Shown one piece after another: positions 20,269-49,897 of a stretch of 64,000 bases of DNA. Below the pieces are notes generated by a model. It made no database searches. It was not told the origin of the DNA and saw nothing but the letters and a program-made list of their open reading frames with translations. Numbering within the stretch: position 1 is the first letter of the stretch; every line of letters begins with the position of its first letter. The stretch comes from Candidatus Pyrohabitans jungbluthii. Its GTDB lineage: Archaea > Hydrothermarchaeota > Hydrothermarchaeia > Hydrothermarchaeales > BMS3B. The position numbers and the translations under genes are program-made. The DNA lies in assembly GCA_002010065.2 (NCBI GenBank), contig MTMD02000002.1, positions 96,001-160,000 on the forward strand, written 5' to 3'.

Positions 20269-20336
20269 CTTAAAACTTCTTTTCGGAAATGTTAAATATT
20301 CTTAAGGAGAAATTAAGAGCGAAGCTAGGGGTAGCC

Positions 20337-21765: not shown

Positions 21766-21987
21766 ATGAAGAGGTTTGCAAATACCGCTCAGAAGGTTAA
21801 GGCAATCCTCGAGGTATTTGAGGGGAGGGAGAAGCTAGCCGGGGATGAGATAGTAACAAGACTCCGTGAGCGTGGCTACGATGTCAACCCTGGAAATATA
21901 AAGATGTTCATACGCTACCACATGCTTTACAAGTACCTGCGCAAGGAGTCGAGAAGCGGAAAGAACCTGTACTTCCTTATAAGTTAG
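21766..21987 (+). CDS. Small basic winged-helix-like hypothetical protein
   Basis: GGTGAGGTGA RBS before ATG 21766; KVKAILEVFEG...GDEIVTRLRERGY...YLRKESRSGKNLYFL. Confidence 0.6.
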   Translation: MKRFANTAQKVKAILEVFEGREKLAGDEIVTRLRERGYDVNPGNIKMFIRYHMLYKYLRKESRSGKNLYFLIS

Positions 21988-22023
21988 GATAAATTTTTAA
22001 GTTATCTCCTATCTTCTCTATTC

Positions 22024-22818: not shown

Positions 22819-22839
22819 GCAGGAAGGCGCCAATGGTAC

Positions 22840-22874
22840 GGAAGGGGTGATAGGGGCGGGGAAGGCGCCCCTAT
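22840..22874 (+). repeat. 35-bp palindromic intergenic repeat, copy 1 (between convergent larB and larC)
   Basis: GGAAGGGGTGATAGGGGCGGGGAAGGCGCCCCTAT; stem ATAGGGGCG/CGCCCCTAT; 29/35 identical to the reverse complement of 29816-29850. Confidence 0.7.
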
Positions 22875-24095
22875 TTAGAAAAACTTAGCCCTCGCCTCGC
22901 AGGCGATCCTGCTCAGCACCTCGCGAATGGGTAGCGAGGTTTTCTCGGCGATGCGCCTTGCATCCTCGTACTCTGGCTTCAGGGTCACAACTTTGCCTTT
23001 TTCGTCCAAGCCCAGTTTCACCCTCGCATAGCCCTCGTAGTTTGAGATTCTCACCCTGATTTTCCTGACCTCTCTCCTGAGGGCAAAGCGCATGCTGACC
23101 CTGGAGTACCTCACCCCCAGGGTGCCCAGTTCGCGCATCATCAGCTGAGCGAGCACTTCCTCCTCGCCGAGAGGCGAAATCACCTGGACCACGTAGCCGG
23201 GGCGGTTTTTCTTTGCTACTGTGGGTATAATCTGCACATCCAGCGCTCCCGCCTTGAAGAGCTCTCCCACCGCATTCCCCAGAACCTCGCCAGAGACGTC
23301 GTCAACGCTTGTTTCGAGCAGCGATATCTGCTCCTTCTCCAGCAAGGGCGCTTCGCAGAGGTAAAGCTGGAGCACATTCGGTGCGCTGCTGAGCTGAGCT
23401 GTACCCGCGCCTCTGCCTATGCTCAAAATCTTGGCTACAGGAAGCTCCTCTGAAAACTCCTCCACAAGGCAAGCGAGAATCGCTAGTCCTGTTGGCGTGG
23501 TAAGCTCGCCTTTGTGTCTCTTAAAAAAGGGCACAGCTTTAGCTCTCAGAATCTCCGCAGCCAGGGGCAGGGGCACAGAAAGCTCACCATGCGAGGTTCT
23601 AACCACACCAGAGCCAACATTTACAGGCGTGGAGATTACATTAAAATCTTTAAAAACGCCCAGAGCGTCGAGCAGCGAAGCAGCACCAAGGATGTCGAAT
23701 AGGGTGTCCACACTCCCAAGCTCGTGGAGGTGGGCATGCTGGTCGCAATGAATGCGTGCCTCGCCCTCTATGAGGGTCTCAAGGCATCGCCTGGCAAAGT
23801 CCTTTGCCTCCCTGCTAATCTGACATTTTTCAAGGATTTTTTCCATATAGTATCTGATGTCATCGTAAGATAACCCTTCAAAATCTTCTTCTATATTCAG
23901 CACCACCTGCTTGCACCTGATATTCTTCCTGTTCACATCTCTAAGCTCGAATCTAACTTTTTTCCCTGTCTCGCCCTCAATGAGCTTAACAACCTCTTCC
24001 AGGGCTTCAGAGGGGGCACCTAAGTCCAAAAGTGCGGCGATGAACATATCGCCGCTTATTCCGGCGACGCTCGGGTCTATAAGCAAGAGTTTCAT
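22875..24095 (-). CDS. larC: Nickel insertase LarC
   Basis: GISGDMFIAALLDLG, HLHELGSVDT, GELTTPTG, LETSVDD, KKNRPG, GTLGVR, PEYED. Confidence 0.93.
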   Translation of the reverse strand: MKLLLIDPSVAGISGDMFIAALLDLGAPSEALEEVVKLIEGETGKKVRFELRDVNRKNIRCKQVVLNIEEDFEGLSYDDIRYYMEKILEKCQISREAKDFARRCLETLIEGEARIHCDQHAHLHELGSVDTLFDILGAASLLDALGVFKDFNVISTPVNVGSGVVRTSHGELSVPLPLAAEILRAKAVPFFKRHKGELTTPTGLAILACLVEEFSEELPVAKILSIGRGAGTAQLSSAPNVLQLYLCEAPLLEKEQISLLETSVDDVSGEVLGNAVGELFKAGALDVQIIPTVAKKNRPGYVVQVISPLGEEEVLAQLMMRELGTLGVRYSRVSMRFALRREVRKIRVRISNYEGYARVKLGLDEKGKVVTLKPEYEDARRIAEKTSLPIREVLSRIACEARAKFF

Positions 24096-24604
24096 GGCTG
24101 CTCACGCATGTACTCTTTCGCCAAAGCGTGATAAACCTCGGCGTTTTTCTTTATCGCCTTCACCTCCTCCCTGCTGAGCTCCCTCACAACCTTCGCCGGC
24201 ACACCAAGGATAAGCGAGTTTGGCGGAAAGCTTTTGCCCTCTGTGAGCACAGCGCCAGCGCCCACAAGGCAGTTCTCACCAACATCCACGCCATTCAGCA
24301 CCACAGCGCCCATTCCTATAAGCGAATTGCTCCCAATCCTGCACCCGTGGATGACGCACCCGTGGGCTATGCTCACAAAGTCGCCTATCTCTACTGGAAA
24401 GCCCTTGGAGACATGGATAACTGCGCCGTCCTGCACATTGGAGTACCTGCCTATTTTAATCCTATCCCTATCCCCCCGCAAAACTGCGTTGTACCATACG
24501 CTAGAAAAATCGCCTATCTCCACGTCGCCAATTAGTTGCGCAGATGGAGCTACGAACACATCCTTTCCCAACCTCGGTGAAATCCCTCTGAAGCTCATGA
24601 GCAT
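24092..24604 (-). CDS. Gamma-class carbonic anhydrase family protein
   Basis: Hexapeptide repeats, AVLRGD, NVQDGAVIH, IAHGCVIHGC. Confidence 0.9.
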   Translation of the reverse strand: MLMSFRGISPRLGKDVFVAPSAQLIGDVEIGDFSSVWYNAVLRGDRDRIKIGRYSNVQDGAVIHVSKGFPVEIGDFVSIAHGCVIHGCRIGSNSLIGMGAVVLNGVDVGENCLVGAGAVLTEGKSFPPNSLILGVPAKVVRELSREEVKAIKKNAEVYHALAKEYMREQP

Positions 24605-24608
24605 GCAA

Positions 24609-25604
24609 TCACTTCCTGAAGCTGGTAATCAGCTTTGGCTTTTTTCCTATTAAAACCATGTCCTCAATCCTTACACCTATCTCCCTATAAACCCCAGGTT
24701 CTACTGTCACCACCATTCCCTCGCGAAGCTCCTCCTTCCCGTGCATGCTTAAGGTAGGAGCCTCGTGCACCTCCAATCCAAGCCCATGTCCCGTGGAATG
24801 CAGAAAGTACTTCTCTAAGCGATACTCCCGCAGCACCTCGCGGGCAGCATTGTCAACCTCACGCACAAGGCTGCCGGCAACGCAATGTTCAATCGCCGCC
24901 CTCTGAGCTTCGAGCACCGCCTCATAAATCTCCTGGAAGGCTTTGCTTTCGGCGAGGGAAAAGCTGCGCGTTATATCGCTTGCGTAGTGCTCAAACCTCG
25001 CCCCCAGGTCGACAATAATCGAAGAAGGCTCAAGGGGAACCGCTTTTGGCGTGTGGTGAGGGATAGCGGAGTTCTCACCTGAGGCGATGATCACATCGAA
25101 GGCAGCATCGGCTTCCCTCTCCAACAGGTACCCAGCGTAGGCGGCAAGTTCCTTCTCACTCTCGGCTTGGGTAAGCCTCTCGGCGACTTTCCCCATTACT
25201 TGCTCTGCTATCCGCGCCGCCTTTTTTATCCTCTTCAGCTCCTCCTTCTCCTTCACCTTCCGCATATCCTCCAAGAACCCTAGGTTAGCCACCTGCCTCC
25301 CTTTAAGATACCTCTCATAGAACTCATAATTGGCGTACCCCTTCTCTATGCCAACTCGCTTACCCTTTATCTGCTTTAACCTTCGTCTGAAGTTCTTGAC
25401 CACCTCCACCTCTACGTTTGAGCCTTCGCTTCGCTTCCCATCCATTGGCGAGACGAGAAGTCTTGGGTTGTCCTCAAGAAGCAGGGCCGCAAAAGCTGAG
25501 GGATAAAAACCGGTGAGGTAGTATATGTTCTGGGGCTTCAGCACTATACCTGTGCTCACCTTTCTCTTCCTAAGCTCCTCAAGGGCTCTCTCAAGGCGGT
25601 TCAT
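24609..25604 (-). CDS. pepQ: Xaa-Pro peptidase (M24B)
   Basis: VDLGARFEHYASDITR, HSTGHGLGLEVHE, TVEPGVY, GVRIED. Confidence 0.9.
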   Translation of the reverse strand: MNRLERALEELRKRKVSTGIVLKPQNIYYLTGFYPSAFAALLLEDNPRLLVSPMDGKRSEGSNVEVEVVKNFRRRLKQIKGKRVGIEKGYANYEFYERYLKGRQVANLGFLEDMRKVKEKEELKRIKKAARIAEQVMGKVAERLTQAESEKELAAYAGYLLEREADAAFDVIIASGENSAIPHHTPKAVPLEPSSIIVDLGARFEHYASDITRSFSLAESKAFQEIYEAVLEAQRAAIEHCVAGSLVREVDNAAREVLREYRLEKYFLHSTGHGLGLEVHEAPTLSMHGKEELREGMVVTVEPGVYREIGVRIEDMVLIGKKPKLITSFRK

Positions 25605-25675
25605 GTGAGTTAATTATCTGCGCAGGTTTTTATATATAATCTGAATTGAAAAATTATGCGTTTGACTAAGAGGAC

Positions 25676-26680
25676 TCACCTGAATATCAGCATCGCATCC
25701 CCAAAGCTGTAAAAGCGGTACCTGTGCTTAATCGCCTCCTGGTAAGCCCTGAGAATCCGCTCCCTCCCTGCGAAGGCGCTCACGAGCATTAGAAGCGTAG
25801 AGCGGGGGAGGTGGAAATTGGTTATTAGCCCGGCATAGGGCAGCCTGAACTCGTAGCCAGGGTAGATGAAGAGCGTAGTCGTAGAAACGCCCGGAACAAC
25901 TCCTCCGTCCTGAAAGGCGCTCTCCAGGGCGCGAACAGTCGTCGTACCCACGGCGAAAACCCTGCACCCCTCTTCCAGCGCACGGTTTATCTTCTCTGCC
26001 TCATTGCGGGGTATCTCAAAATGCTCCTCGTGCATTCGATGCTTTTCCACCTCCTCCACCTTCACAGGCAGAAACGTGCCAAGACCAACGTGCAGTGTTA
26101 TGAAAGCAAACTCCACGCCGCGGCTGCGGAGCTCAGCTAAAAGCTCCTGTGTAAAGTGAAACCCTGCGGTGGGTGCGGCGATGCTCCCGTCCTTGCTTGC
26201 ATAAACCGTCTGGTACTCCTCCGGGTTATCTACCCTCCTCTTTATGTACGGCGGGGTTGGCATCTCACCTATCTTCCACATCGCCTGTCTAATATCTCCA
26301 CCACTGAAGCGGACCACAAGTTTACCTTCGCTTTTATTCTCAACCCGAGCATGTATTCCAGAAGGAAATATTATCTCCATGCTCTCCCTCAGCTTGCCCT
26401 TGAAGAGGCACTCCCACAGGTTCTCCTCAAGCTCCTTCACCAGAAGAAGCTCCACCCTGCCGCCAGTGCTCTTCTTCCCCTTAAGGCGCGCAGGAATTAC
26501 GCGAGAATTGTTGAAAACAAGCAGGTCGCCCCTCTCAAGGTAGCGTACTATTTCCCTGAAGATGCGGTGCTCTATATTGTCGCCTCGCAGCACCATTAAC
26601 TTTGAGGCATCCCTCCTTCTAAGGGGCTCCTGGGCGATAAGCTCCTTTGGCAGGGCGTAGTCGAAGTCGCTCAATTTCAT
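25676..26680 (-). CDS. queA: S-adenosylmethionine:tRNA ribosyltransferase-isomerase QueA
   Basis: MKLSDFDYALPKELIAQEP, NNSRVIPARL, PPYIKR, YQTVYA, AAPTAGFHFT, LHVGLGTF, VGTTTVRALES, TNFHLPRSTL, YRFYSFGDAMLI. Confidence 0.96.
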   Translation of the reverse strand: MKLSDFDYALPKELIAQEPLRRRDASKLMVLRGDNIEHRIFREIVRYLERGDLLVFNNSRVIPARLKGKKSTGGRVELLLVKELEENLWECLFKGKLRESMEIIFPSGIHARVENKSEGKLVVRFSGGDIRQAMWKIGEMPTPPYIKRRVDNPEEYQTVYASKDGSIAAPTAGFHFTQELLAELRSRGVEFAFITLHVGLGTFLPVKVEEVEKHRMHEEHFEIPRNEAEKINRALEEGCRVFAVGTTTVRALESAFQDGGVVPGVSTTTLFIYPGYEFRLPYAGLITNFHLPRSTLLMLVSAFAGRERILRAYQEAIKHRYRFYSFGDAMLIFR

Positions 26681-26861
26681 AGTCAACAAAGGAGAGGTTC
26701 ACGTGGAAAATATATAGTTTAACCTTAATTTTAACAAAACCTCCACCGCAGGATACCGAACAAAACTTTTAAATATTTATTAAATTAATTACACAGGTGG
26801 CTTAGTGGAAGCCCGCTCCGATAATCTGATATTACAAAAAGCTCTGCAGGAGATTGAGAGG

Positions 26862-27554
26862 ATGAAGGAAGTAAGCATTGCCAAGGGTCTGGTAATTCTT
26901 GTTATCCTTTTGAGCATGCTCTCCGTGGCTCATGCCAAGCCAGAGTATGCGGAAAAGACTGGCGAAAGCTGCGTTGTCTGCCATCCCAATGGTCCGCCTG
27001 AACTGGGACCTGCGGGAGAGTACTACAAGGAGCACGGCACCCTCGAAGGCTACGGCGAGCTTCCAGCAGGAGAGCCTGAGCCAGGGGGGAGGTGCAACGT
27101 CTGCCATGCCCAGTTCAAGCCCAACCCCACGCCCCGGGACTTGAGCGCTGCTCCGCGAGAGCCCAACCACAGGTTTGAGTTCAACCACGGCGGCGGCAAG
27201 TTCTGGTGCCTCACCTGCCACAACCCTGTGAACCGCGACACCCTTCGCCTTTTCAACGGGAGCGAAATCCCCTTTGAGGATGCTCCTGAACTATGCGCCC
27301 AGTGCCATGGCGTGATTTACCAAGAGTGGAAGGACCACATCCACGGCAGGTGGGTTGGCAGTATCGAAAGCCCAGAGCCGGATGTTATATGTACAGATTG
27401 CCACAACCCGCATGATCCAGAGTTCAAACCGATTAAGCCAGAGAAGCCGCCGGAGAAGCCTCCAGCTTCAAAGGAGATTCCCAACTATCCGGTATACTCT
27501 TTCATAGTGCTAGCACTAAGCCTTTTGCTTGCTGTGTACGCCGCGTGGAGGTAG
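26862..27554 (+). CDS. Pentaheme c-type cytochrome, exported and C-terminally membrane-anchored
   Basis: Five CxxCH motifs (CVVCH, CNVCH, CLTCH, CAQCH, CTDCH); signal peptide and C-terminal TM. Confidence 0.9.
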   Translation: MKEVSIAKGLVILVILLSMLSVAHAKPEYAEKTGESCVVCHPNGPPELGPAGEYYKEHGTLEGYGELPAGEPEPGGRCNVCHAQFKPNPTPRDLSAAPREPNHRFEFNHGGGKFWCLTCHNPVNRDTLRLFNGSEIPFEDAPELCAQCHGVIYQEWKDHIHGRWVGSIESPEPDVICTDCHNPHDPEFKPIKPEKPPEKPPASKEIPNYPVYSFIVLALSLLLAVYAAWR

Positions 27555-27558
27555 AGAG

Positions 27559-28536
27559 ATGGTTGACGAGAGCAGGAGAGACTTCCTCAAAAAAGCGGCT
27601 GCTGGTGCAACCGCAGCTGTTATTCCTTTCGCAAACGTGCGTATCCCAGTAATTGACGTAACCCTCGAGGAGTTCTTCCAGAAACACTACAAAGAGATGA
27701 GTGACGATGACAAGAAGCGCGTTATAGAGCGTCTTAAGAAAGAGTACAAGGAGAAGTACGGTATAGACGCTGAGATAAAGACGACGCCACCAAAGGAAGG
27801 CGTTGTTTGGGGCTACGCGCTCAATATACAGAAGTGCATCGGCTGCAGGCGCTGCGTCTATGCCTGCATGCGGGAGAACAACCAGTCTCGAGCCTCACCT
27901 AAGGATCCGACTAAAAGCGAGATACAGTGGATCCGCGTGCTTGAGATAGAGAAGTTCAAGATTCACCCTGGCGAGGAAGGCAAAGACTTCCGTACTCGCT
28001 TTGGCGAGATTATTGCGGGCGTCAACTTAGAGGAGAATGAGCACTACTACAACCCGGAGCATGTGCCAGAGGAGGATAAATTCTACGTGCCTATCCAGTG
28101 CCAGCAGTGCGAGCGCCCACCCTGTGTGAAGGTGTGCCCAACAAAAGCTACATGGAAGGAGCCTGACGGAATAATCGTGGTGGACTACAACTGGTGCATT
28201 GGCTGCAGATTCTGCCTCGCCGCGTGCCCCTACTGGGCTCGCAGGTTTAACTGGAGCGATCCATATTTACCCAAGGAGGAGATCAACCCCAAGATGCACT
28301 ACCTGGGCAATCGTATCCGCATGCGTGGCGTTGTGGAAAAGTGCACCTTCTGCATACAGCGCACCAGAGAGGGGCGCTACCCCGCGTGCGTGGAAGCTTG
28401 TCCAGTGGGTGCAAGGAAGTTCGGCAACCTGCTTGATCCAGAGAGCGATGTGAGGAAGGTGCTGGAGAAAAAGCGCGTCTTCCGGCTGAAAGAGGAACTC
28501 GGAACGCAGCCGAAATTCTTCTACTTCATGGACTGA
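27559..28536 (+). CDS. Tat-exported 4Fe-4S protein (NrfC/DsrO/QrcC family)
   Basis: SRRDFLK twin-arginine; CIGCRRCVYAC, CQQCERPPCVKVCP, CIGCRFCLAACP, KCTFC...PACVEACP. Confidence 0.9.
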   Translation: MVDESRRDFLKKAAAGATAAVIPFANVRIPVIDVTLEEFFQKHYKEMSDDDKKRVIERLKKEYKEKYGIDAEIKTTPPKEGVVWGYALNIQKCIGCRRCVYACMRENNQSRASPKDPTKSEIQWIRVLEIEKFKIHPGEEGKDFRTRFGEIIAGVNLEENEHYYNPEHVPEEDKFYVPIQCQQCERPPCVKVCPTKATWKEPDGIIVVDYNWCIGCRFCLAACPYWARRFNWSDPYLPKEEINPKMHYLGNRIRMRGVVEKCTFCIQRTREGRYPACVEACPVGARKFGNLLDPESDVRKVLEKKRVFRLKEELGTQPKFFYFMD

Positions 28537-28537
28537 G

Positions 28538-29815
28538 GTGATGGAGATGAGCAAGCTAATCGACTTCGTGATAACCTCAATAAAGGTTTCCCTGACAGGA
28601 AGCAAGAAGTACTACGCATGGCTGGCGAGTCTGCTCATAATGGTGCTCTTCGGAGCGTTTTCATATTACTACCAGCTCAAATACGGATTGATAATCACCG
28701 ACATCCGCGACCAAGTGAGCTGGGGTAGCTACATCGCCAACTTCACATTCCTCGTTGGCGTAGCAGCGGCGGCAGTGATGATCGTCTTGCCTGCGTACAT
28801 CTACAACTACAAGGAATTCAAACATATCACCATATTCGGCGAACTCCTCGCTGTTGGAGCTTTGACAATGTGTCTGAGCTTCGTGCTTATTGACCTCGGT
28901 AGGATTGACAGGATGCTCCACATCCTGCCCTTCACAGGTACGCCAAACTGGCCTCAGTCCATGCTCACCTGGGACGTGATTGTGCTCAATGGCTACCTGT
29001 TCCTGAACCTGCTAATCCCGGGCTACCTGCTGTACAAAGCCTACGTTCGCGAGCCTCCACGAAAGTGGATTAAGATATTCATCCTCATCTCCATACCCTG
29101 GGCGATAAGCATCCACACAGTTACGGCGTTTCTCTACGGTGGCTTAGCCGCGAGACCCTTCTGGAACACCGCCGTGATGGCTCCGCGATTCCTTGCAAGC
29201 GCGTTTACAGCAGGACCCGCACTGATGATAATTATCCTCCAGATAGTCAGGCGCTACACATGCATTGGCAAGCCCGGGTGTAAGCTCGTTGTGACGGACA
29301 GAGCGCTCTTCACCCTGGCGCACATCGCTTTAATATCCATGCTGGTCAACCTGTTCTTCCTTGGCTCTGAGATTTACACCGTGGGCTACGCCGCAACCTC
29401 ACACCTTGCGCCGCTGAAGTACCTCTTCTTCGGCCTGGAGCACAACGGCGTACACTATGGCAAACTTCAGCCATACATGTGGGCAGCGATTACAATGGAG
29501 ATAATCGCCGCGATCTTGCTGCTCTTCCCGAAGACCCGCAAGAACTTCACAACGCTCAACATAGCCTGCATCTTCGCCTTCCTCGGCATATGGACAGAGA
29601 AGGGTATGGGCCTCATAATACCAGGCTTTATACCCACGCCCATCGGCGAGATATGGGAGTACTATCCCACACTTATGGAGATAATGATAACCCTCGCCGT
29701 GTGGGCTCTTGGTTTTCTGGTGTACACCCTTCTCCTCAAGGTTGCTATAGCGATAGAAGCCGAGGAAGTGGTGCACCCCAGCGCTAAAGACAAAGAGATG
29801 CCTGAGGCGCACTGA
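28538..29815 (+). CDS. NrfD/DsrP/QrcD-family membrane subunit
   Basis: VSWGSYIANFTFLVGVAAA, DLGRIDR, SIHTVTAFL, RPFWNTA, about 10 TM. Confidence 0.9.
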   Translation: MMEMSKLIDFVITSIKVSLTGSKKYYAWLASLLIMVLFGAFSYYYQLKYGLIITDIRDQVSWGSYIANFTFLVGVAAAAVMIVLPAYIYNYKEFKHITIFGELLAVGALTMCLSFVLIDLGRIDRMLHILPFTGTPNWPQSMLTWDVIVLNGYLFLNLLIPGYLLYKAYVREPPRKWIKIFILISIPWAISIHTVTAFLYGGLAARPFWNTAVMAPRFLASAFTAGPALMIIILQIVRRYTCIGKPGCKLVVTDRALFTLAHIALISMLVNLFFLGSEIYTVGYAATSHLAPLKYLFFGLEHNGVHYGKLQPYMWAAITMEIIAAILLLFPKTRKNFTTLNIACIFAFLGIWTEKGMGLIIPGFIPTPIGEIWEYYPTLMEIMITLAVWALGFLVYTLLLKVAIAIEAEEVVHPSAKDKEMPEAH

Positions 29816-29850
29816 GTAGGGGCGCCGCACCCGCCCCTATTACCCCATCC
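29816..29850 (-). repeat. 35-bp palindromic intergenic repeat, copy 2 (between convergent genes; may act as terminator)
   Basis: Reverse complement GGATGGGGTAATAGGGGCGGGTGCGGCGCCCCTAC matches 22840-22874 at 29/35. Confidence 0.7.
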
Positions 29851-29861
29851 TCACTCACCAA

Positions 29862-30209
29862 CTACCATTTAGAGATTGCTTCTTCCACAGCGTTGACCCA
29901 CTGTTTAACGGCGTTGCGCAAAATCTTCTTTGCCTCTTCCTTGGGCACTGCCTCGTAAAGGTATGCTCTTCCCCTCTCCCGTGTAACCACGCGGCGATAG
30001 GCTAAGCCATAGCCAACCAGATTCTGAAGGGCACGCTGCACTAAGCTGCGGCTTTTGCCTATACGCTCGCTGAGTTCAACTGGCGTACCGGGAGCCTTAA
30101 GCAGCTCAAAGTAAAGCTCAGCCTCCAGGGGGCGAAGCCCGAGCAGACACTGCATTACAAAGTCAACACTGGGCTCGCCCGAGCATATCAAGCTTCTCGC
30201 CTCAAACAT
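29862..30209 (-). CDS. TrmB-family HTH transcription regulator
   Basis: CLLGLRPLEAELYFELL...ELSERIGKSRSLVQRALQNLVGYGLAYR...GRAYLYEA. Confidence 0.85.
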   Translation of the reverse strand: MFEARSLICSGEPSVDFVMQCLLGLRPLEAELYFELLKAPGTPVELSERIGKSRSLVQRALQNLVGYGLAYRRVVTRERGRAYLYEAVPKEEAKKILRNAVKQWVNAVEEAISKW

Positions 30210-30233
30210 CGCCAGACCTCTGTTCCCTATATT

Positions 30234-30254
30234 ATGTTCAAATTTGTTGAACAT
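30234..30254. promoter_or_regulatory. Perfect inverted repeat, candidate operator
   Basis: ATGTTCAA-ATTTG-TTGAACAT between the regulator and divergent thioredoxin genes. Confidence 0.55.
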
Positions 30255-30324
30255 GTTACAATATATTTAAACTCTTGAAAATAATTCCGTGATGAAAGGA
30301 TATATAACTATCGCAGGTGATTGA

Positions 30325-30708
30325 ATGAAGAAGCTTCTAGCGATAAGCCTTGTGCTGCTCATCCTCGCAAGCGGATGCACCAGCAAAGGCGGAGGAGGCA
30401 ATGCCGAGGAGGAGCTTGCAGCGGCGCTGCACTCGGGCAAGCCCACGCTGGTGATGTTTTATGCCACCTGGTGCAATCCGTGCAAGCTGGAAAAGCCGAT
30501 CATAGGCGAGATTCAGCTGGAGTATGGTAGCAGGGTGAACGTTGTTTACGTGGATGTGGACAGGTATCCTAGGCTTGTTTCCCACTACGGCATTCGCGGT
30601 ACGCCCACAATGATGTTCTTCGACTCTAAGGGTAGGCCCGTAAAAACCTTTGTGGGCTACACCCCAAAACCCCAGCTGGTAGCAACCTTAGAAGCGCTGA
30701 TGAGGTGA
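30325..30708 (+). CDS. Thioredoxin-family lipoprotein
   Basis: Lipobox LASGC; FYATWCNPCK; GTPT. Confidence 0.88.
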   Translation: MKKLLAISLVLLILASGCTSKGGGGNAEEELAAALHSGKPTLVMFYATWCNPCKLEKPIIGEIQLEYGSRVNVVYVDVDRYPRLVSHYGIRGTPTMMFFDSKGRPVKTFVGYTPKPQLVATLEALMR

Positions 30709-31115
30709 TGGCAATGGATGAGATAGAGGCGATAAAGAGGAAGAAGCTTGAGAAAATGCTCCTCCGCGCATCTCAGCCTAAGGTGGAGTACCCCTCCTCC
30801 CCAGTGTATGTGAACGAGGCAACCCTCGCTGAGACTGTGCAGAAGTATCCCTTAGTGCTCGTGGACTTTTACGCCGACTGGTGCCAGCCGTGCAAAATGC
30901 TCGCGCCCATAATCGACGAACTCGCCGCTGAGCTTAAAGGCAAGGTGGTGTTTGCAAAGATAAACGTGGACCAGAATCCCAGGGCGGCGATGCAGTACCA
31001 GGCGATGAGCATACCAACGCTTGTGCTCTTCAAGAACGGCAAACCCGTGGATCGTATGGTCGGAGCCATGCCAAAGCAGATGCTCCTAGCAAGACTAAAG
31101 CGCTTCCTGGGGTAA
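30708..31115 (+). CDS. trxA: Thioredoxin
   Basis: VDFYADWCQPCKMLAP, SIPTLVLFKNG. Confidence 0.9.
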   Translation: MAMDEIEAIKRKKLEKMLLRASQPKVEYPSSPVYVNEATLAETVQKYPLVLVDFYADWCQPCKMLAPIIDELAAELKGKVVFAKINVDQNPRAAMQYQAMSIPTLVLFKNGKPVDRMVGAMPKQMLLARLKRFLG

Positions 31116-31547
31116 CCTCCTCTTTAGCATGTAAATCCCACCGGCAAGAGGAAAAGCCAGAGTGCACAGCAGGTAAACCTGCCCCGGGGTAAGGATATAG
31201 AGGAGGGGATTGCTCTCAAAGGGGAACAATGGCGTCATATCTTCATAGAGTAGGGAATCCAGAAGCACGTGAGACCAGGTTCCCAAGAGGGCGCCTAGGT
31301 AAAGGCTTGGGAGGTGCTCCCTTCTAAGCAGGTGCATTGTCAGTGCTAAGGCAGCGGCGATCAGCGCAGCTACCGCATACGTGTGGCTCAGCCCGTGAAG
31401 CGCAAAGGGCATGCCCAGAAAGAGCACCACAAAGGGTTGCACATCCAGCACGACGCTTCCTATAAGCAGAGACCCTGCGCTCACCCTCCCCCTGAAAAGC
31501 ACTGCCATGAGTAGCGCAGGCCCAAGGTGGAAGGGTGTAATGGGCAT
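31095..31547 (-). CDS. Membrane metal-dependent hydrolase (DUF4184/YdjM-like)
   Basis: MPITPFHLGP, LHGLSHT, SHVLLDSL, PLFPF. Confidence 0.75.
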   Translation of the reverse strand: MPITPFHLGPALLMAVLFRGRVSAGSLLIGSVVLDVQPFVVLFLGMPFALHGLSHTYAVAALIAAALALTMHLLRREHLPSLYLGALLGTWSHVLLDSLLYEDMTPLFPFESNPLLYILTPGQVYLLCTLAFPLAGGIYMLKRRLPQEAL

Positions 31548-31578
31548 GATTAATATACCACCCAGCCCAACTTAAACC

Positions 31579-32442
31579 ATGCGCTTTTTGCCTTTCTACA
31601 AGGTGAGTGCCTTCTCCAAGAAGCCCTACGCCGGTAACCCCGCGGCAGTGGTGCTGAACGCTGAAGCGCTTGGCGATGATACCATGCTCACTATAGCGCG
31701 CGATGCGAATGTGACAGAGACCTGCTTCCTCTCTACCTCGGAGAAGGCTGACTTTAAGGCGAGGTACTTCACGCCAACGCAGGAGGTTGACCTCTGCGGG
31801 CACGCCACAATCGCAAGCATTCACGTGCTGGTAGAGCAGGGGATAATTAAACCCGAAGATAAGGTGCAGTTAACCCTTGAAACCCTTGCGGGCGTGCTTG
31901 AGGTGGAGGTGGAGAGACGCAGTGATGGCTTTCTGGTATGGCTCACCCAAGCAGAGCCAAGGTTTACTCCTGCGTCCATAGAAAAAAGTGAGGCTGCGTC
32001 GCTGCTGGGAATAAGCGAGCGAAGTCTTGGAGACTTGCCAATAGAGGTAGTTTCCACTGGCTTACCGGCGCTGCTTGTGCATCTCTCGCGGAGAGAGGAG
32101 CTTCTAAGGCTGAAGCCAGATTTTCCGGGCATCGCCCAGGCGTGCGCTCGGGCTAAGGCGGCTGGCATCTATGCCTTCGCCCTCTCAGGCAATGAAGCTG
32201 AAGCGAGGTTCTTTGCGCCCCTCTGTGGCATAGATGAGGACCCGGTCACTGGCACCGCCGCAGGTGCGCTGCTCGCATATCTATTGCGCTATCGCGCGTT
32301 CAAAGGCAGGAGGCTTATAATATCCCAGGGTAAAGTCCTGAGAAGGGAGGGGGAGATTTATGCAGAGCCTTGCGAGGATGGAAGGGTGAGAGTTGGTGGC
32401 TACGCAACCACCTTCCTGCGGGGAGAAATCCTTGTGCCATGA
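31579..32442 (+). CDS. PhzF-family isomerase/epimerase
   Basis: AGNPAAVV, ETCF, EVDLCGHATIA, EDPVTGTA. Confidence 0.92.
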   Translation: MRFLPFYKVSAFSKKPYAGNPAAVVLNAEALGDDTMLTIARDANVTETCFLSTSEKADFKARYFTPTQEVDLCGHATIASIHVLVEQGIIKPEDKVQLTLETLAGVLEVEVERRSDGFLVWLTQAEPRFTPASIEKSEAASLLGISERSLGDLPIEVVSTGLPALLVHLSRREELLRLKPDFPGIAQACARAKAAGIYAFALSGNEAEARFFAPLCGIDEDPVTGTAAGALLAYLLRYRAFKGRRLIISQGKVLRREGEIYAEPCEDGRVRVGGYATTFLRGEILVP

Positions 32443-32495
32443 TGTTCAAATTTTGTCATCGTCGTCACCCTGTGCACATTCTGCTGGTGGCGATA

Positions 32496-33512
32496 ATGAA
32501 GGAGTTTATTTCAAAGGTTGTTGAAGGCAAGGATTTAAGCGAAGAAGAAGCTACGCAAGCGATGAAGCTCATAATGAGCGGCAAGGCGACGCCTGCTCAG
32601 ATCGCAAGCTTTCTTACCGCCCTTCGCATGAAGGGTGAGACGATCACCGAAATCTCTGCCTTCGCTCGTGTTATGCGCGAGTTTGCAGCGCAGATTAACC
32701 CTCGTGTTGACGGCAGACTTGTGGACACCTGTGGCACCGGTGGAGATAAGGTGAAAACCTTCAACATCTCAACCATAGCCGCCTTCGTTGTCGCTGGCGC
32801 AGGCGTGCCCATAGCCAAGCACGGCAATCGCAGCGTCACCTCGAAGGCGGGGAGTGCAGATCTGCTCGAGGCGCTGGGGGTGAACCTAAACCTCTCACCA
32901 AAGCAGGTAGAGAGCATTATAGAAAACATAGGCATAGGCTTTATGTTCGCTCCCACCTTTCACGGGGCCATGAAGTATGCGATAGGCCCGAGGAAGGAGA
33001 TAGGCATCCGCACGGTGTTCAATGTGCTTGGTCCGCTTACAAACCCCGCCAACGCCCAGGCGCAGGTCCTGGGGGTTTTCGACTCCGCGCTGGTGGAGCC
33101 TCTCGCGCAGGTTCTTGGTCGCCTTGGGGTGGAGCATGCGCTGGTGGTGCACGGCTTAGAAGGCCTGGACGAGATTTCCATCTGCGGAGAAACCTTAGTG
33201 GCGGAGCTCAAAAATGGAAGCGTGGAGACCTACACGCTTTCTCCAGAGGACTTCGGAATAAGGCGCGCCCGCGCCGAGGAGCTCGCTGGCAGAGACGCTC
33301 AGGGGAATGCAGAAATCGCTAAGGCGCTGCTAAAAGATCGCGAAGAGGGAGCGAGGCGCGATATAGTGGTGCTCAATGCGGCGGCGGGTATCTACGTTGG
33401 GGGTAAGGCGAAAAGCATCGACTCAGCTATAGACCAAGCGGAGAAGAGCATAGACTCCGGCGGAGCCTATGAGAAGCTCTTAGCTCTTGTGGAGGCGAGC
33501 AGGCAAAGCTAG
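32496..33512 (+). CDS. trpD: Anthranilate phosphoribosyltransferase
   Basis: DTCGTGGD, FNIST, KHGNRSVTSKAGSADLLEALG, RTVFNVLGPLTNP, GLDEIS. Confidence 0.96.
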   Translation: MKEFISKVVEGKDLSEEEATQAMKLIMSGKATPAQIASFLTALRMKGETITEISAFARVMREFAAQINPRVDGRLVDTCGTGGDKVKTFNISTIAAFVVAGAGVPIAKHGNRSVTSKAGSADLLEALGVNLNLSPKQVESIIENIGIGFMFAPTFHGAMKYAIGPRKEIGIRTVFNVLGPLTNPANAQAQVLGVFDSALVEPLAQVLGRLGVEHALVVHGLEGLDEISICGETLVAELKNGSVETYTLSPEDFGIRRARAEELAGRDAQGNAEIAKALLKDREEGARRDIVVLNAAAGIYVGGKAKSIDSAIDQAEKSIDSGGAYEKLLALVEASRQS

Positions 33513-33573
33513 TTTCAAACTTTTCTGACGAGAAGCTACCGCCTTCTTCTGCCGCTGGGCAGGGCTGAAAGGA

Positions 33574-34215
33574 ATGGTTAAGGTAAAGATATGTGGGAAC
33601 ACAAGCATCGCTGACATTGAGTTGGTCTCTGAGCTAGGTGCAGACTTCGCAGGTTTTATAGTTGAGGTGCCCGTGGATACGCCGCGGAAGATTACCCTAG
33701 CTGAGGCTGAGAAGATAATGGAGGAGATGCCCTTTACCACCGCTGGCGTTATGGTTATAATGCCTCAGAGCGTGGAAGAAGCTTTGAACATGTACATGGC
33801 GGTTCGCCCCGACTTCCTTCAACTGCATGGCAACGAGTCTCCAAAGTTCGTGCGGGAGCTTCGCGGCTTGGTGTCGTGCAACATAATCAAAACCATCCAC
33901 GTCAAGGGCGAGGAAAGCATCTCCGAAGCTAAGCGCTACGTCAACTACGTGGATGCGATACTCCTGGACACCCCCTCTCCGCAGCAGGGAGGCTCAGGCA
34001 GGACCCACGACTGGGAGGTCTCGCGAAAAATAGTGGAGAGCATACCCAAGCCCGTGATACTTGCGGGAGGGCTTACCCCTGAGAACGTTGCCGAGGCTAT
34101 TGAGATAGTCAAGCCATACGCAGTGGACGTTTCCAGCGGCGTCGAAGCTGAGCCTGGAAAGAAGGACCCGGAGAAGGTCAGGCGCTTCATTGCCCAGGCA
34201 AAGGGATTGGAATGA
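33574..34215 (+). CDS. trpF: Phosphoribosylanthranilate isomerase
   Basis: VKICG, LQLHGNE, LLDT...GGSGRTHDW, LAGGLTPENV, VDVSSGVE. Confidence 0.95.
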   Translation: MVKVKICGNTSIADIELVSELGADFAGFIVEVPVDTPRKITLAEAEKIMEEMPFTTAGVMVIMPQSVEEALNMYMAVRPDFLQLHGNESPKFVRELRGLVSCNIIKTIHVKGEESISEAKRYVNYVDAILLDTPSPQQGGSGRTHDWEVSRKIVESIPKPVILAGGLTPENVAEAIEIVKPYAVDVSSGVEAEPGKKDPEKVRRFIAQAKGLE

Positions 34216-34775
34216 CAAAGCTCAAGGTGACTGTCTCCTCCAAGGAGGAGGCGAGACATGCTGTGCCTTTTGCCAGCGCCATAGGGGTTAGCGTAGATGT
34301 TAACAGCAGGGAGAGCATCCTTGCGGCAAGGGAGATATTCGCAAGTCTTCCTATCTTCCTATACACCGTGGCTGAGATTGAGCCGAGATTTGCTGCTCAA
34401 GCAATGCGCGTTTATGAGCTCGCTGCCCCTCACGCACTCGAAATTAGAGGAAGCGAAAAGCCTGAGTACCTCAAAAAACTACGCTCAAAGCTGGGGTGCC
34501 ATGTGATAAAGTCTCTCGAGGGTGGCGACGCAGAGAAGGTCGCGAAGTATGCGGAAGCCTGCGATGCCATCGCCATTAAGCTTGCTAAGCCTGAGGTGGA
34601 ACTTGGGCTCAGGTTGAAGGGCTTGACTCCCAAGCCCGTGATTTTCTCCTTTTACGAGGTTAATGAGAGCGTAGAGGATTTTCTGGCTGAGGTCAAGCCC
34701 TTTGCAATAAGCCTGAGCTTTAAGCAGCTTGCAGGGCAAAGGATTAATAGCCTCCTCGCCAAATTATCTCCATGA
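34212..34775 (+). CDS. Degenerate TrpF-like TIM-barrel paralogue
   Basis: Aligns by eye with the adjacent TrpF (PHALEIRGSEKPEYLKKLR, CHVIKSL, DAIAI, PKPVIF, VKPFAISL) but lacks its catalytic motifs. Confidence 0.6.
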   Translation: MTKLKVTVSSKEEARHAVPFASAIGVSVDVNSRESILAAREIFASLPIFLYTVAEIEPRFAAQAMRVYELAAPHALEIRGSEKPEYLKKLRSKLGCHVIKSLEGGDAEKVAKYAEACDAIAIKLAKPEVELGLRLKGLTPKPVIFSFYEVNESVEDFLAEVKPFAISLSFKQLAGQRINSLLAKLSP

Positions 34776-36142
34776 GGGAACTGTTTTCCTTCCTCTCTGA
34801 GGAGCGCGTTCTCGTTGATAAGGAAGACCTGCTCCTATACTCCTACGACGCAACGCCTTCACGAAGGTATCCCATCGCCGTGGTTAGGCCGGTAAGCACA
34901 GAAGAGGTTGTGGAAATCGTAAAGGTGGCTTCACGAAAGCGAATACCTCTCGTCGCTCGCGGTGCCGGCACGAGCCTGAGCGGTGCCCCACTTCCCTGCG
35001 AGGGCTGCATTGTGGTGGACTTCTCGCTGATGGATGAGATTATTGAAGTGGATGAGGTCAACGCCTTTGTTGCTGTGCAACCCGGCGTGGTGTATGAGGC
35101 GCTTAACCGTGAGCTGGCGAAGCACGGGCTCTTTTTTCCACCTGACCCTGGAAGCGGAAGCGTTTGCACCATCGCGGGCATGGTGGCAATGAACAGCTCA
35201 GGCATACGCGCCGTGAAGTATGGCACCACTCGCGACTACGTTGCCTCGCTTGAGGTTGTGCTCGGCACAGGCAGAGTTGTTAAGCTTGGCGGGAGGTACA
35301 AGAAGAGTTCATCCGGCTACGACCTCAAAAGCCTCTTCGTTGGGAGTGAGGGGACGCTGGGGCTCTTTACAGAGATAGGGCTCCGCGTGATACCTAGGCC
35401 AAACCACCACGCGGCTATGATTGCGCACTTCGACGACTTCACAGAAGCTGGGAAGGCTATAACCCAAGCTATGGCAAAGCGCCTTGACGTGGCTGTGCTG
35501 GAGGTTATGGACTCCCTGGTTGTGGAAGCCGTGGAAAGCTTCTCAGGCATAAACCTGGGCTCAGCCGAGGCTCTCGTCTTAGCTGAGGTTGAGGGCTTTG
35601 ACGCTAACGTTAAGGAGGAGATTCGCAGGATTGCGCAGGTTTTCACCCGGAGAGGGGCGAAGGTGGAGCTTGCCTTCGACGAGGCAGAGATCGCTCGCCT
35701 GTGGCGTGCTCGAAAGGCTGCACTTCCAGCGTTGGCGCGCCTCGCAAGCACACTGCTGCTCGAAGATATCACTGTGCCCGTCTCGGCGCTGCCCGAGATG
35801 ATGCGTAGAATTCGCGGCATTGGCCAGAGGCATAACATTAGAATCGCCACCTTTGGTCACGCTGGAGACGGCAACCTGCACCCAACTTTTCTCGTAGAGA
35901 ACGAGGAGGAGATGCGCAGGGTGAGCGCTGCGATAGAGGAACTGTTCAGGGAGTGCCTCTCTCTCGGGGGCACCCTCTCGGGAGAGCACGGCATTGGCAC
36001 CGAGAAGCGCCGGTATTTCGAGCTTGAGCACGGCTACGCAACGCAGGTAATGCGCGAGATAAAGCGCGCCCTTGACCCAAAGAACATCCTCAACCCAGGA
36101 AAGATTTTTTATGGAAGGCAAGCTTATTTTAAGCTGAGATGA
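34772..36142 (+). CDS. FAD-linked oxidase, GlcD/D-lactate dehydrogenase family
   Basis: RGAGTSLSG, FPPDPGS, GSEGTLG, GHAGDGNLHP, SGEHGIG, LDPKNILNPGK. Confidence 0.9.
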   Translation: MRELFSFLSEERVLVDKEDLLLYSYDATPSRRYPIAVVRPVSTEEVVEIVKVASRKRIPLVARGAGTSLSGAPLPCEGCIVVDFSLMDEIIEVDEVNAFVAVQPGVVYEALNRELAKHGLFFPPDPGSGSVCTIAGMVAMNSSGIRAVKYGTTRDYVASLEVVLGTGRVVKLGGRYKKSSSGYDLKSLFVGSEGTLGLFTEIGLRVIPRPNHHAAMIAHFDDFTEAGKAITQAMAKRLDVAVLEVMDSLVVEAVESFSGINLGSAEALVLAEVEGFDANVKEEIRRIAQVFTRRGAKVELAFDEAEIARLWRARKAALPALARLASTLLLEDITVPVSALPEMMRRIRGIGQRHNIRIATFGHAGDGNLHPTFLVENEEEMRRVSAAIEELFRECLSLGGTLSGEHGIGTEKRRYFELEHGYATQVMREIKRALDPKNILNPGKIFYGRQAYFKLR

Positions 36143-36672
36143 AAAAGAGGCTTCTATTGCATGTGTGCTGCGCTCCAGACGCTACTGTGCCCTACCAGCG
36201 ACTCAAAGATGAGTACGAGGTAATCGCCTTCTTCTACAACCCCAACATCCACGGAGAGGAGGAGTATCAGAAGCGCCTGCACGAGGTGGAGAGGCTTGCG
36301 AAGCTCTGGGACTTCCCTCTAATAGTTGGGGAGTACAACGTGGAGCAGTGGTTCAGCGCAGTTCGAGGCCTTGAGGATGAGCCAGAAGGGGGCAAGCGCT
36401 GCGAGGTGTGCTACTCGCTGCGCTTGGAGGAGACGGCAAAGCTTGCGAAGGAGCTTGGATGCGAGGCTTTTGCAACAGTGCTCACCATAAGCCCCCACAA
36501 GAAGGCGGAGAAAATAAACGCCATAGGTAAAGAAGCAGGCGAAAGACACGGCATCGCTTACCTTGAGTCTGACTTCAAGAAGAAGGATGGGTTTAAAGAG
36601 AGTGTCAGGATAAGCAGAGAGCTTAATCTCTACCGGCAGAACTACTGCGGCTGCAGGTTTTCTATGAGGTAG
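36139..36672 (+). CDS. queH: Epoxyqueuosine reductase QueH (DUF208)
   Basis: LLLHVCCAPD, FYNPNIH...EY, EGGKRCEVCYSLRLEETA, LTISPHK, LYRQNYCGCRFS. Confidence 0.92.
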   Translation: MKKRLLLHVCCAPDATVPYQRLKDEYEVIAFFYNPNIHGEEEYQKRLHEVERLAKLWDFPLIVGEYNVEQWFSAVRGLEDEPEGGKRCEVCYSLRLEETAKLAKELGCEAFATVLTISPHKKAEKINAIGKEAGERHGIAYLESDFKKKDGFKESVRISRELNLYRQNYCGCRFSMR

Positions 36673-36673
36673 C

Positions 36674-37648
36674 TCATTCTAAAATAGTGGTGTTCCAGGG
36701 CAGGGAGCTGAACTGCACAACCTCGCCTGGCAAGACATCGTGGCGTATTGCTATCTTGTCCTCACCAACGAAAACAACTGTGGAGTTCCACGGATATCCC
36801 ACACTTACGGTATCTCCAGCCTTTAGAAGAAGCTCAAGCGTAATGGTTTCACCAGCCTCGGAGACCCTTGCCTTTATATTCATGCCCGGCAGCTCAACCA
36901 CATCACCCTCGCTGGCAGCCCCGAAAACTGATTCAAACTCCTCCTTTGAGACCACAACAAACCGCTTCAGGTACTCCACGCGGGGGATCTCGTCATATAT
37001 AGGGATTACCGTCACGAGCTCAGGGTTTACATCGCCGTACGCCTCACTCGGGGCAAGGGTAACCGTCTTTGTTTCGTTTATTCTCATCCCGAGCACCGCT
37101 CTTTCAAATCCGCTTATCACCTCGCCACTGCCAAGAGTGAAGGTGAAGGGCTTATAGCTACCACGGAGGTCAAACTCCTGCGCCTTAGGTATACTCTGGT
37201 CCCTCGCTATTTCCTCAATCGTCGTATCGAAGACCTGGCCATTCTCAAGTCTCCCTATATAGTCTACAGTTACGACGTCTCCTTCCTGCGCCACCTTAGG
37301 GTTAGCCACACCCTCACGCGATATATTGAGAAGCCTGACAGTGAAGGTGAGCGTTTTGCCAGCAAGGGGATGGTTATTGTCTATGAAGGCATGTGTGCCA
37401 TTGGTGTAGATCATCACCATGCCAAAGGGGGTCATAACTGTGGTATTCTCCACATTGTGGTGAAGCTTTATTGGGGGCAGCAAGGGCTCAGACTCAGGCG
37501 CCTCCTCCGGAAGTGTTTCCCCCTCAGGCTTTGAGCCAAAGAGGTTGAAAACAACACCGCTCGCCAGGATGCCGCCCACCATTATAACAAGGATGAACCA
37601 CAGCCAAAGGCGGGAGTTCTTCTCGGGTTTATTTCCTTTGCTTCTCAT
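36674..37648 (-). CDS. Membrane-anchored FKBP/SlyD-type peptidyl-prolyl isomerase, apparently circularly permuted
   Basis: N-terminal TM; IDNNHPLAGKTLTFTV precedes GDVVTVDYIGRLENGQVFDT, GEVISGFE and EAYG. Confidence 0.8.
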   Translation of the reverse strand: MRSKGNKPEKNSRLWLWFILVIMVGGILASGVVFNLFGSKPEGETLPEEAPESEPLLPPIKLHHNVENTTVMTPFGMVMIYTNGTHAFIDNNHPLAGKTLTFTVRLLNISREGVANPKVAQEGDVVTVDYIGRLENGQVFDTTIEEIARDQSIPKAQEFDLRGSYKPFTFTLGSGEVISGFERAVLGMRINETKTVTLAPSEAYGDVNPELVTVIPIYDEIPRVEYLKRFVVVSKEEFESVFGAASEGDVVELPGMNIKARVSEAGETITLELLLKAGDTVSVGYPWNSTVVFVGEDKIAIRHDVLPGEVVQFSSLPWNTTILE

Positions 37649-37671
37649 CGCACAAGCTTGCACGCTGCTCT

Positions 37672-38208
37672 TTATATAGTTTTCCTCGAATTGTTCCCGC
37701 AAGCTCTCGCGTAAAGTTTAGCCACCCCTTCCACGACCTCCTCTACGCTTAGCTTACTGGTGTCCACCATGTAGTCGTGGTTCGCATAGTAAGGGGCGCG
37801 CTGCTCCATGAGCTCCTTTATCCTTCTCAGAGGATTATCTACCCTAAGCAGGGGTCGTGAGGTATCACCGCGAAGGCGCTGGTATATCACCTCGGGCTCA
37901 GCGTGCAGATACACTATAACTCCATTCTTGCGGAGGTTGGAGATGTTCTCCTTGTTGAGCACAACCCCCCCGCCGGTTACTATCACACAGCCTTCGAGCT
38001 TTGAAACCTCCTCCACCACGCGGCGCTCCAGCTCCCGAAAGTGTGGCTCGCCGTGCTTCTGGAAAATTTCCGCAATCTTCATCCCTGCCCTGCGCTCTAT
38101 CTCCTCGTCGGTATCCACGAAGCGCAGCCCGAGCTTAGCTGCCAGAGCTTTGCCCACTGTGCTCTTTCCAGCGCCCATGAATCCTGTGAGTACGAGATTC
38201 TTCTTCAT
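37672..38208 (-). CDS. aroK: Shikimate kinase, bacterial AroK (NMP-kinase) type
   Basis: LTGFMGAGKSTVG, DTDEEIE, GEPHFRELE, TGGGVV, RPLL, RAPYY. Confidence 0.93.
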   Translation of the reverse strand: MKKNLVLTGFMGAGKSTVGKALAAKLGLRFVDTDEEIERRAGMKIAEIFQKHGEPHFRELERRVVEEVSKLEGCVIVTGGGVVLNKENISNLRKNGVIVYLHAEPEVIYQRLRGDTSRPLLRVDNPLRRIKELMEQRAPYYANHDYMVDTSKLSVEEVVEGVAKLYARACGNNSRKTI

Positions 38209-38284
38209 GATTCTTCCCCTTACGCACAGCATTGTAACGAGCTCAATCCCTAAAGCTTTATATTAAGGCGTGCTAAATATTAGC

Positions 38285-49809: not shown

Positions 49810-49897
49810 GGATACCTCATCAACCTTAAAGTTTATATACTTTATCTTAAAACAGAATGATGGAGATTCTAAAAATCTAAAAGAGGAGGTACAGACT

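Follow-up and report, generated by a model that had tools for sequence, protein, structure and literature searches.

The window analysed here, 64,000 nucleotides of Candidatus Pyrohabitans jungbluthii (Hydrothermarchaeota; contig MTMD02000002.1, positions 96,001 to 160,000), encodes QueA and QueH, two enzymes of the late queuosine (Q) pathway, on an archaeal chromosome, and a bacterial-type tRNA-guanine transglycosylase (bTGT) is encoded further along the same contig. We consider it probable, at roughly 70%, that this archaeon follows the bacterial route to queuosine at G34 of tRNA-Asp, tRNA-Asn, tRNA-His and tRNA-Tyr, starting from preQ1 obtained by salvage, and that it has archaeosine at position 15 as well. 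In the proposed scheme, the bTGT would exchange G34 for preQ1, QueA would add the epoxycyclopentanediol ring with S-adenosylmethionine (SAM) as donor, and QueH would reduce epoxyqueuosine to queuosine. Archaeosine at G15 would be made alongside by TgtA and an ArcS-like protein, from preQ0 supplied by a queC-DUF366-queE-queD operon. The preQ1 would be imported by the transporter YhhQ/QPTR and not derived from preQ0 made in the cell. From the genes described below we infer what the enzymes do, that tRNA contains Q and where preQ1 comes from.

The genome of the window (G000) has a size of 1.99 Mb in 15 contigs and is 99.95% complete, with 1.84% estimated contamination. The window lies on a contig of 620,739 bp (C2). 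For comparison, 38 species genomes of the phylum were used, G000 included, and class-rank and phylum-rank searches gave the same 38; genomes with ≥90% completeness and ≤5% contamination were regarded as high-quality (n=21). The principal genes are as follows, with window positions for queA and queH and contig positions for the others:

25676..26680, minus strand: queA, predicted tRNA preQ1(34) S-adenosylmethionine ribosyltransferase-isomerase, 334 aa from the ATG at 26680 (PF02547, NF001140, TIGR00113)
36139..36672, plus strand: queH, predicted DUF208/QueH-type epoxyqueuosine reductase, 177 aa (PF02677)
G000:C2:385636-386799: bacterial-type tgt, about 263 kb from queA on the same contig (TIGR00430)
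C2:351779-354070: preQ0 operon, queC-DUF366-queE-like-queD
C2:516817-517488: YhhQ/QPTR transporter (PF02592, 193 bits; TIGR00697 'queuosine precursor transporter', 200.3 bits against a cut-off of 50.95)

QueA scored 432 bits on Pfam PF02547 (cut-off 25), covering profile positions 1-322 of 322, and exceeded the curated equivalog thresholds of NCBIfam NF001140 (446.8 against 324) and TIGR00113 (393.7 against 267.45). The structure of the Thermotoga maritima enzyme (1vky) aligned with it end-to-end, over residues 1-332, at 376 bits. The ATG at 26680 agrees with the N-terminus of the T. maritima enzyme in this alignment; the maximal extent of the reading frame is 25676-26689 (minus strand), where an in-frame TTG at 26689 adds 3 aa to give 337 aa.

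QueH scored 235 bits on PF02677 (cut-off 23.5) and 148 bits against T. maritima QueH (7lc5), and no model was matched in an NCBIfam search of the queH product. Six of its seven cysteines (Cys10, 11, 88, 91, 170 and 172) match cysteines of 7lc5 in the alignment, which presumably bind the metal cluster. The best QueG candidate in G000 reached 47.8 bits against a cut-off of 200, and because no QueG passes, the last step has no candidate other than QueH. The initial annotation had described both proteins as intact and set in archaeal housekeeping surroundings, and this was borne out, with family scores far above the cut-offs and aRF1, PolD and Cdc6 nearby.

That annotation had also made its reading depend on a G34-type transglycosylase in the rest of the genome, and one is present. 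The bTGT scored 433 bits on TIGR00430, with an equivalog cut-off of 306.75, and only 168.9 on the archaeosine model TIGR00432, with a cut-off of 350. Among solved structures it aligned best with T. maritima 2ash (367 bits), followed by the Zymomonas mobilis enzyme (~328), human QTRT1 (~285) and the archaeosine TGT 1iq8 (96). Aligned with the Z. mobilis enzyme, it keeps D102, D156, C158, G230, L231, E235, D280, C318, C320, C323 and H349, of which we take the aspartates to be catalytic and C318, C320, C323 and H349 to be zinc ligands. Position 233 in the same numbering, presumably a site in the substrate pocket, is Ile, as in T. maritima; queuine-type TGTs have Gly here, and the pocket of preQ1-type enzymes has Val or Ile. 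The residue mapping is supported by the counted alignment positions, which land exactly on the Z. mobilis numbering.

ARAGORN detected 46 tRNA genes in G000. Those for tRNA-Asp(GTC), tRNA-His(GTG), tRNA-Tyr(GTA) and tRNA-Asn(GTT) all have C32-U33-G34-U35, with CUGUN at 32-36, and UGU at 33-35 is the identity element for bacterial TGT. The earlier inference of queuosine-modified tRNAs is thus supported at the gene level, by the bTGT active site that is kept and by the U33-G34-U35 of the four GUN tRNAs.

A second transglycosylase, on contig C5, is the archaeosine enzyme TgtA (655 aa, TIGR00432 609.7 bits). An ArcS-like protein of 316 aa with DUF5591, TGT_C2 and PUA domains is encoded at G000:C8:37216-38166 (L108:1450-2400). 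It scored 302 bits on the ArcS model against a cut-off of 440 and covered positions 267-575 only, the C-terminal half, so that the N-terminal half of ArcS would be missing or encoded elsewhere. In many genomes of the phylum a further TGT-like match, the third and a weak one, falls in frames of ~300 aa and covers the C-terminal half of TIGR00430 only (for example G004:C65:7000-7479, G015:C38:6772-7248 and G002:C103:9652-10128); none was found in G000 at E≤0.001.

The supply of precursors was examined by searching G000 for the genes proposed in the initial annotation. QueC (211 bits) and QueD (99.6 bits) were found in one operon, and YhhQ was found as well. For QueE the outcome was mixed: the same operon holds a QueE-like radical SAM gene, and its product falls under all NCBIfam QueE cut-offs. 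QueT was also looked for in G000, and none was found. A tRNA-Asp(GTC) gene lies at G000:C2:515361-515437, about 1.4 kb from the YhhQ gene, which may be coincidence.

The three late genes are conserved throughout the phylum. QueA had a match in 35 of the 38 genomes and exceeded the cut-off in 34, with a match in all 21 high-quality genomes. The bTGT was over the cut-off in 33/38 genomes and in 20/21 of high quality; in the 21st (G020) its gene is divided between two contig ends. QueH was found in 34/38 and 21/21, and the four genomes that lack it are 57-82% complete. No QueA was found in three genomes sampled outside the class (0/3). Genes for the supply of preQ1 are distributed more patchily. 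QueF was over the cut-off in 15/38 genomes (16/38 at E≤0.01; 6/21 high-quality), YhhQ was present in 13/38 (10/21) and QueC, at E≤1e-20, in 30/38 (16/21). QueF was found in none of the 11 genomes of the family of G000, G000 included, and YhhQ occurs in 5/5 genomes of its own genus and in 0/6 of two sister genera. Five types of gene content were distinguished:

type A: QueC and QueF; 13 genomes including G013, G014, G018 and G035; de novo synthesis possible
type B: QueF and YhhQ, no QueC; G015 and G023
type C: neither QueC nor QueF, two YhhQ genes, one of them beside queA; G012, G020 and G026
type D: QueC and YhhQ, no QueF; all five genomes of the genus of G000 (G000-G004), with G017 and G036
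type E: QueC, neither QueF nor YhhQ; 11 genomes, 7 of them high-quality

The QueF match of G032 (type A) is a contig-end fragment under the cut-off, and QueC at E≤1e-20 was not found in G003 (type D) and G007 (type E). Two incomplete genomes stand outside all types: G021, 78% complete, has QueF and lacks a QueC match, and G031, 62% complete, has QueC only. The high-quality genomes of type E (G005, G006, G007, G008, G009, G016 and G033) all have QueA, bTGT and QueH. The preQ1 supply thus varies over the phylum: QueF, YhhQ or nothing recognisable.

Salvage is supported by the family of G000, where no QueF was found while all five genomes of its own genus have YhhQ, and by type C, whose three genomes, without QueF and QueC, have a YhhQ gene beside queA. 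A GlpM-like membrane protein (111-115 aa; PF06942 23-29 bits) is encoded between the YhhQ gene and queA at L124:8768-9103 and L126:2399-2746, in two genomes without QueF and QueC.

The DUF366 gene of the preQ0 operon (G000:C2:352459-353016; L003:2172-2729) lies between queC and the QueE-like gene, and its product scored 243.6 bits on PF04017. The family is present in 25/38 phylum genomes, mostly adjoining queC, and its sole solved relative is a 'hypothetical protein' (2ddz, 134.5 bits). It was considered as a substitute for QueF, being present in all 18 type D and type E genomes, including G003 and G007 without a QueC match. This was rejected, as 7 of the 16 genomes that match QueF have DUF366 too, and so do two archaea without QueA, M. 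jannaschii and M. acetivorans. We count it among the genes of an archaeal-type preQ0 operon, and its function is probably tied to preQ0 or archaeosine.

Gene order in the relatives points to an ancestral cluster. At G023:C40 all three late genes lie within 4 kb as queA-tgt-queH; at G017:C24 their order is queH, tgt, queA. Adjacent bTGT and queA genes are common among the relatives (G009:C62, G013:C8 and G017:C24 are examples), and queF is divergent from queA-tgt at G018:C12, G014:C24, G019:C155 and G022:C260. The cluster is dispersed in the genus of G000. On C2 of G000 itself, queA, queH and tgt are found at 121.7, 132.1 and 385.6 kb; the 10-kb spacing of queA and queH is retained in G001, G003 and G004.

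To place these genes phylogenetically, QueA and TGT trees were constructed as unrooted quick searches. The QueA tree comprised 90 rows, with L096 (which duplicates the L010 locus), the partial L100 and L106 and matches below 300 residues excluded; its bacterial rows were the best 80 of at least 589 confirmed relatives from a pattern scan, which is a biased sample. The TGT tree comprised 35 rows, with matches below 320 residues excluded. Some vaguely named NCBI rows belong to this phylum, for example L029, which is identical to the G022 locus.

The QueA of the window is 47-57% identical to bacterial QueAs, among those best 80. Its closest named locus among the matches listed is L016, from a Candidatus Hydrothermarchaeota, with 75% identity, which nests in the clade of the window's own genus (4 rows, 99% SH-aLRT). 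All 23 archaeal rows group with one row labelled as a Calescamantes bacterium (SH-aLRT 93), within a larger group (SH-aLRT 95) to which 3 rows of Atribacterota and 7 with the label Patescibacteria, Saccharibacteria or Gammaproteobacteria also belong. Placing the 23 archaeal rows in a single clade was not rejected by the AU test (p 0.77), and the log-likelihood of the tree constrained in this way was 14.25 above that of the free search. A branch with 99% SH-aLRT sets 19 bacterial rows apart from the archaeal TGTs in the TGT tree. A QueA phylogeny had been suggested in the initial annotation; in this one, and in that of TGT, the archaeal sequences group apart from the bacterial ones.

Loci with queA-tgt(-queH) from Methanoperedens and Thermoplasmata were also among the matches listed. 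Taken together, the trees would fit a single ancient gain of the genes, which archaea then inherited and exchanged with each other. As to a bacterial donor, Atribacterota and Patescibacteria are nearest in the QueA tree (95% SH-aLRT) and not in the TGT tree, and no donor or order of events is named because the bacterial sample is biased and the trees are unrooted. Only tentatively, and with more doubt than belief, do we put forward that Q34 is a fixed, vertically inherited trait of the phylum that goes back to one old transfer of queF/queA-tgt-queH shared with Methanoperedens and some Thermoplasmata.

The position of the genes in the archaeal chromosome was assessed from the surrounding core genes and from independent assemblies. 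The archaeal core genes of the window are:

17008-18246: aRF1
56680-60048: PolD DP2
60057-61589: PolD DP1
61657-62943: Cdc6/Orc1

An ADP-dependent PFK/GK and an ATP-dependent DNA ligase are also encoded in the window. The genes queA, queH, tgt, queC and yhhQ all lie on the 620,739-bp contig along with PolD, Cdc6 and aRF1. GC content is even over queA and queH; dips were seen at window positions 20001-22000 (0.45), 48001-50000 (0.46) and 62001-64000 (0.41), against a background of ~0.53.

For the continuity of the contig, contigs from four public runs that were not marked as a possible source were aligned to positions 22000-38500. An X4 contig of 6136 bp spans 22879-29006 with larC, pepQ, queA and the cytochrome genes (90 differences), and another X4 contig, of 9968 bp, spans 29826-38500 including queH (101 differences). 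Positions 24636-25733 are bridged by contigs of X5 and X6, and 34202-37794 by one of X6. The contig is not chimeric, because the queA and queH junctions recur in contigs from other sequencing runs; chimerism around queA, named in the initial annotation as fatal to its reading, was therefore not what this check found. At the intergenic positions 22794-22879, X5 and X6 contigs carry 36 other letters in place of 84 bases and several contigs end, which looks like a strain-variable spot between two genes.

The locus L016 has the same gene order as the window from queA through the neighbouring cytochrome, 4Fe-4S and NrfD-like genes, with 72-78% nucleotide identity. As queA, tgt and queH are conserved phylum-wide, they are resident and under selection. 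For queH this agrees with the view taken from the window at the outset, namely that it is coupled to its upstream gene and resident: the ATG of queH shares bases with the TGA of the upstream gene for a flavin adenine dinucleotide (FAD)-linked oxidase (ATGA overlap), and the gene is conserved over the phylum.

Several results weigh against queuosine made from imported preQ1. Our literature search returned no report of Q detected in archaeal tRNA, and among public RNA runs none was listed matching window positions 25600-35599. With queA and queH 10 kb apart and tgt ~263 kb off, operon logic gives no link between them here. QueF, which the initial annotation had proposed to look for, was not found in G000: PF14489 gave 0 matches among 8 scored candidates, and tblastn with the QueF of two relatives gave a best E of 1.0, with the same queries hitting 5 control loci. 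Two QueF proteins from the relatives with queF divergent from queA-tgt reached 145 and 164 bits against the preQ1 synthase model TIGR03139, above its cut-off of 86.9, and are therefore true nitrile reductases. The full de novo queuosine set, from FolE to QueG/H, is accordingly incomplete in G000 for lack of QueF, and preQ1 is therefore most likely imported through YhhQ and not made from the cell's own preQ0. The substrate specificity of YhhQ is not readable from sequence, and the Escherichia coli QPTR carries preQ1 and preQ0 while other family members vary in substrate, according to the available text of a review (PMC11130926). Seven high-quality genomes lack both QueF and YhhQ, and YhhQ salvage is thus not a general answer for the phylum. 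Either some unrecognised route exists in these seven or preQ1 is not the substrate there.

The same seven genomes, which keep QueA, bTGT and QueH, favour an explanation in which Q34 is made and the cell converts preQ0 of its own to preQ1 with an enzyme not yet recognised (a nitrile reductase that is no relative of QueF, or a reduction that takes place on the tRNA), with YhhQ serving another purpose. It would suit the preQ0 synthesis encoded in G000 (queC, queD and the QueE-like gene). The queA-tgt neighbours in type E genomes were RadA, an RPA-like OB-fold protein, a Hel308-type helicase and Pfam-less ORFs, with no transporter or reductase among them, and the lack of a transporter speaks for this explanation too. 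We regard it as unlikely all the same, since no candidate enzyme was found (DUF366, the one member of the preQ0 operon without an assigned role, also occurs with QueF and in QueA-less methanogens), and since other transporter families can carry preQ1, as stated in the available text of the same review (PMC11130926), for which no screen was made.

A departure from queuosine itself, in which preQ0 is put at G34 and left or processed otherwise, or in which another nucleic acid is modified, we judge highly improbable. In its favour, QueF is missing while preQ0 is available, and bacterial TGT accepts preQ0; QueA, on the other hand, cannot act without the aminomethyl group that preQ1 carries. Intact QueA is kept in 34/38 genomes, as is intact QueH, and with both so widespread a pathway that stops at preQ0 makes no sense. 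Moreover, the TGT scores as a G34 equivalog and as neither DpdA nor TgtA. Of the two options that the initial annotation had offered, queuosine-modified tRNAs are the better supported, and use at a different position or on a different substrate the less so.

Bacterial contamination, contig chimerism or a recent transfer whose genes are now decaying might be suspected from the 47-57% identity to bacterial QueAs and from a 15-contig assembly with 1.84% estimated contamination. This is already refuted by the present data: the genes share a contig with PolD, Cdc6 and aRF1, the junctions recur in independent assemblies, no reading frame is broken, the genes occur in 33-34 of the 38 species of the phylum, and L016 is collinear with the window.

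Further features of the window adjoin queA and queH:

26707..26720, minus strand: A/T-rich TATA-like stretch aaactatatatttt, ~30 nt upstream of the queA ATG, read from the sequence
34772..36142, plus strand: GlcD-like FAD-linked oxidase (PF01565, PF02913), whose stop codon overlaps the queH start

The A/T-rich stretch is a possible candidate for an archaeal promoter of queA. Divergent from queA, at 26805-29815, are genes for a multihaem cytochrome c and a 4Fe-4S protein and an ORF of ~425 aa, which judging from its translation is taken to be an NrfD-like membrane protein; this block has 78% nucleotide identity to the Candidatus Hydrothermarchaeota locus L016. On the queH side, 4-nt overlaps join the successive ORFs 33574-34215, 34212-34775, 34772-36142 and 36139-36672. 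The ORF 34212-34775 (187 aa) is without a Pfam family and is coupled to trpF, the overlapping gene upstream of it, and to the GlcD-like oxidase downstream. The oxidase scored 434 bits on TIGR00387, under the cut-off of 567.9. By position it would be an operon partner of queH, without a known link to queuosine.

If the proposed pathway operates, it has consequences beyond this genome. According to the available text of a review, queuosine belongs to bacteria and eukaryotes, and its de novo synthesis is only bacterial (PMC11130926). On the more doubtful reading of Q34 as a fixed, inherited trait of the phylum, its members with QueC, QueF, Tgt, QueA and QueH would count as archaeal de novo producers of Q, contradicting the bacteria-only statement, and members without QueF and YhhQ would use an undiscovered route to preQ1, by a new reductase or a new transporter. 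A phylum with bTGT, QueA and QueH would be a clean test ground for Q34 alongside archaeosine, with a QueC and QueF match in 13/38 genomes. The gene set would reveal how preQ0 is partitioned between two transglycosylases and would show if deep-subsurface archaea rely on preQ1 from nearby bacteria. Genomes with the late genes and no known source of preQ1 form a defined comparative set for finding the missing enzyme or transporter.

Archaeal QueA, QueH and Tgt are already published. In its available text, the study of Castelle et al. 2021 in Frontiers in Microbiology describes QueA, QueH-like and Tgt proteins in 34 archaeal genomes, 12 of them DPANN, and a figure legend names Methanosarcinales (PMC8204110). 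The initial annotation had treated Q34 in an archaeon as unexpected; its genes are confirmed, and the idea is not new in view of that study (PMC8204110). G000 has the same three late bacterial-type genes, and in both cases function is derived from genomes only. The co-localised genes of Castelle et al., as far as its text was available, were found here in the relatives G023:C40 and G017:C24 and are dispersed in G000. Unlike in the available text of that paper, where Hydrothermarchaeota are not named, the set is here fixed phylum-wide, with QueF in 15/38 genomes. A full-text literature search returned no relevant paper linking Hydrothermarchaeota or Methanoperedens with queuosine. New are the phylum-wide conservation and the patchy supply of preQ1. 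The present data also add that the late Q genes stand beside archaeal core genes and coexist with archaeosine machinery, and that archaeal QueA and TGT sequences group together.

Among known systems, the archaeosine pathway of TgtA (arcTGT) and ArcS shares the precursor preQ0 and a homologous transglycosylase fold with the predicted queuosine branch, and it is itself present in G000; it acts at position 15, not 34, and does so without QueA or QueH. The best solved relatives of the three late proteins are Tgt (2ash, 367 bits), QueA (1vky, 376 bits) and QueH (7lc5, 148 bits) of T. maritima, which share with those of G000 the Ile at TGT 233 and six QueH cysteines and differ in being bacterial. 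Bacterial salvagers usually lack preQ0 synthesis. The Q-branch genes of G000 are the same as those of the bacterial preQ1-salvage type, as presented in the available text of PMC11130926: a bTGT with a preQ1-type pocket, QueA, QueH and YhhQ/QPTR, and no QueF. Compared with that type, the host of the G000 genes is archaeal, and it would make preQ0 and use it for archaeosine through TgtA and ArcS.

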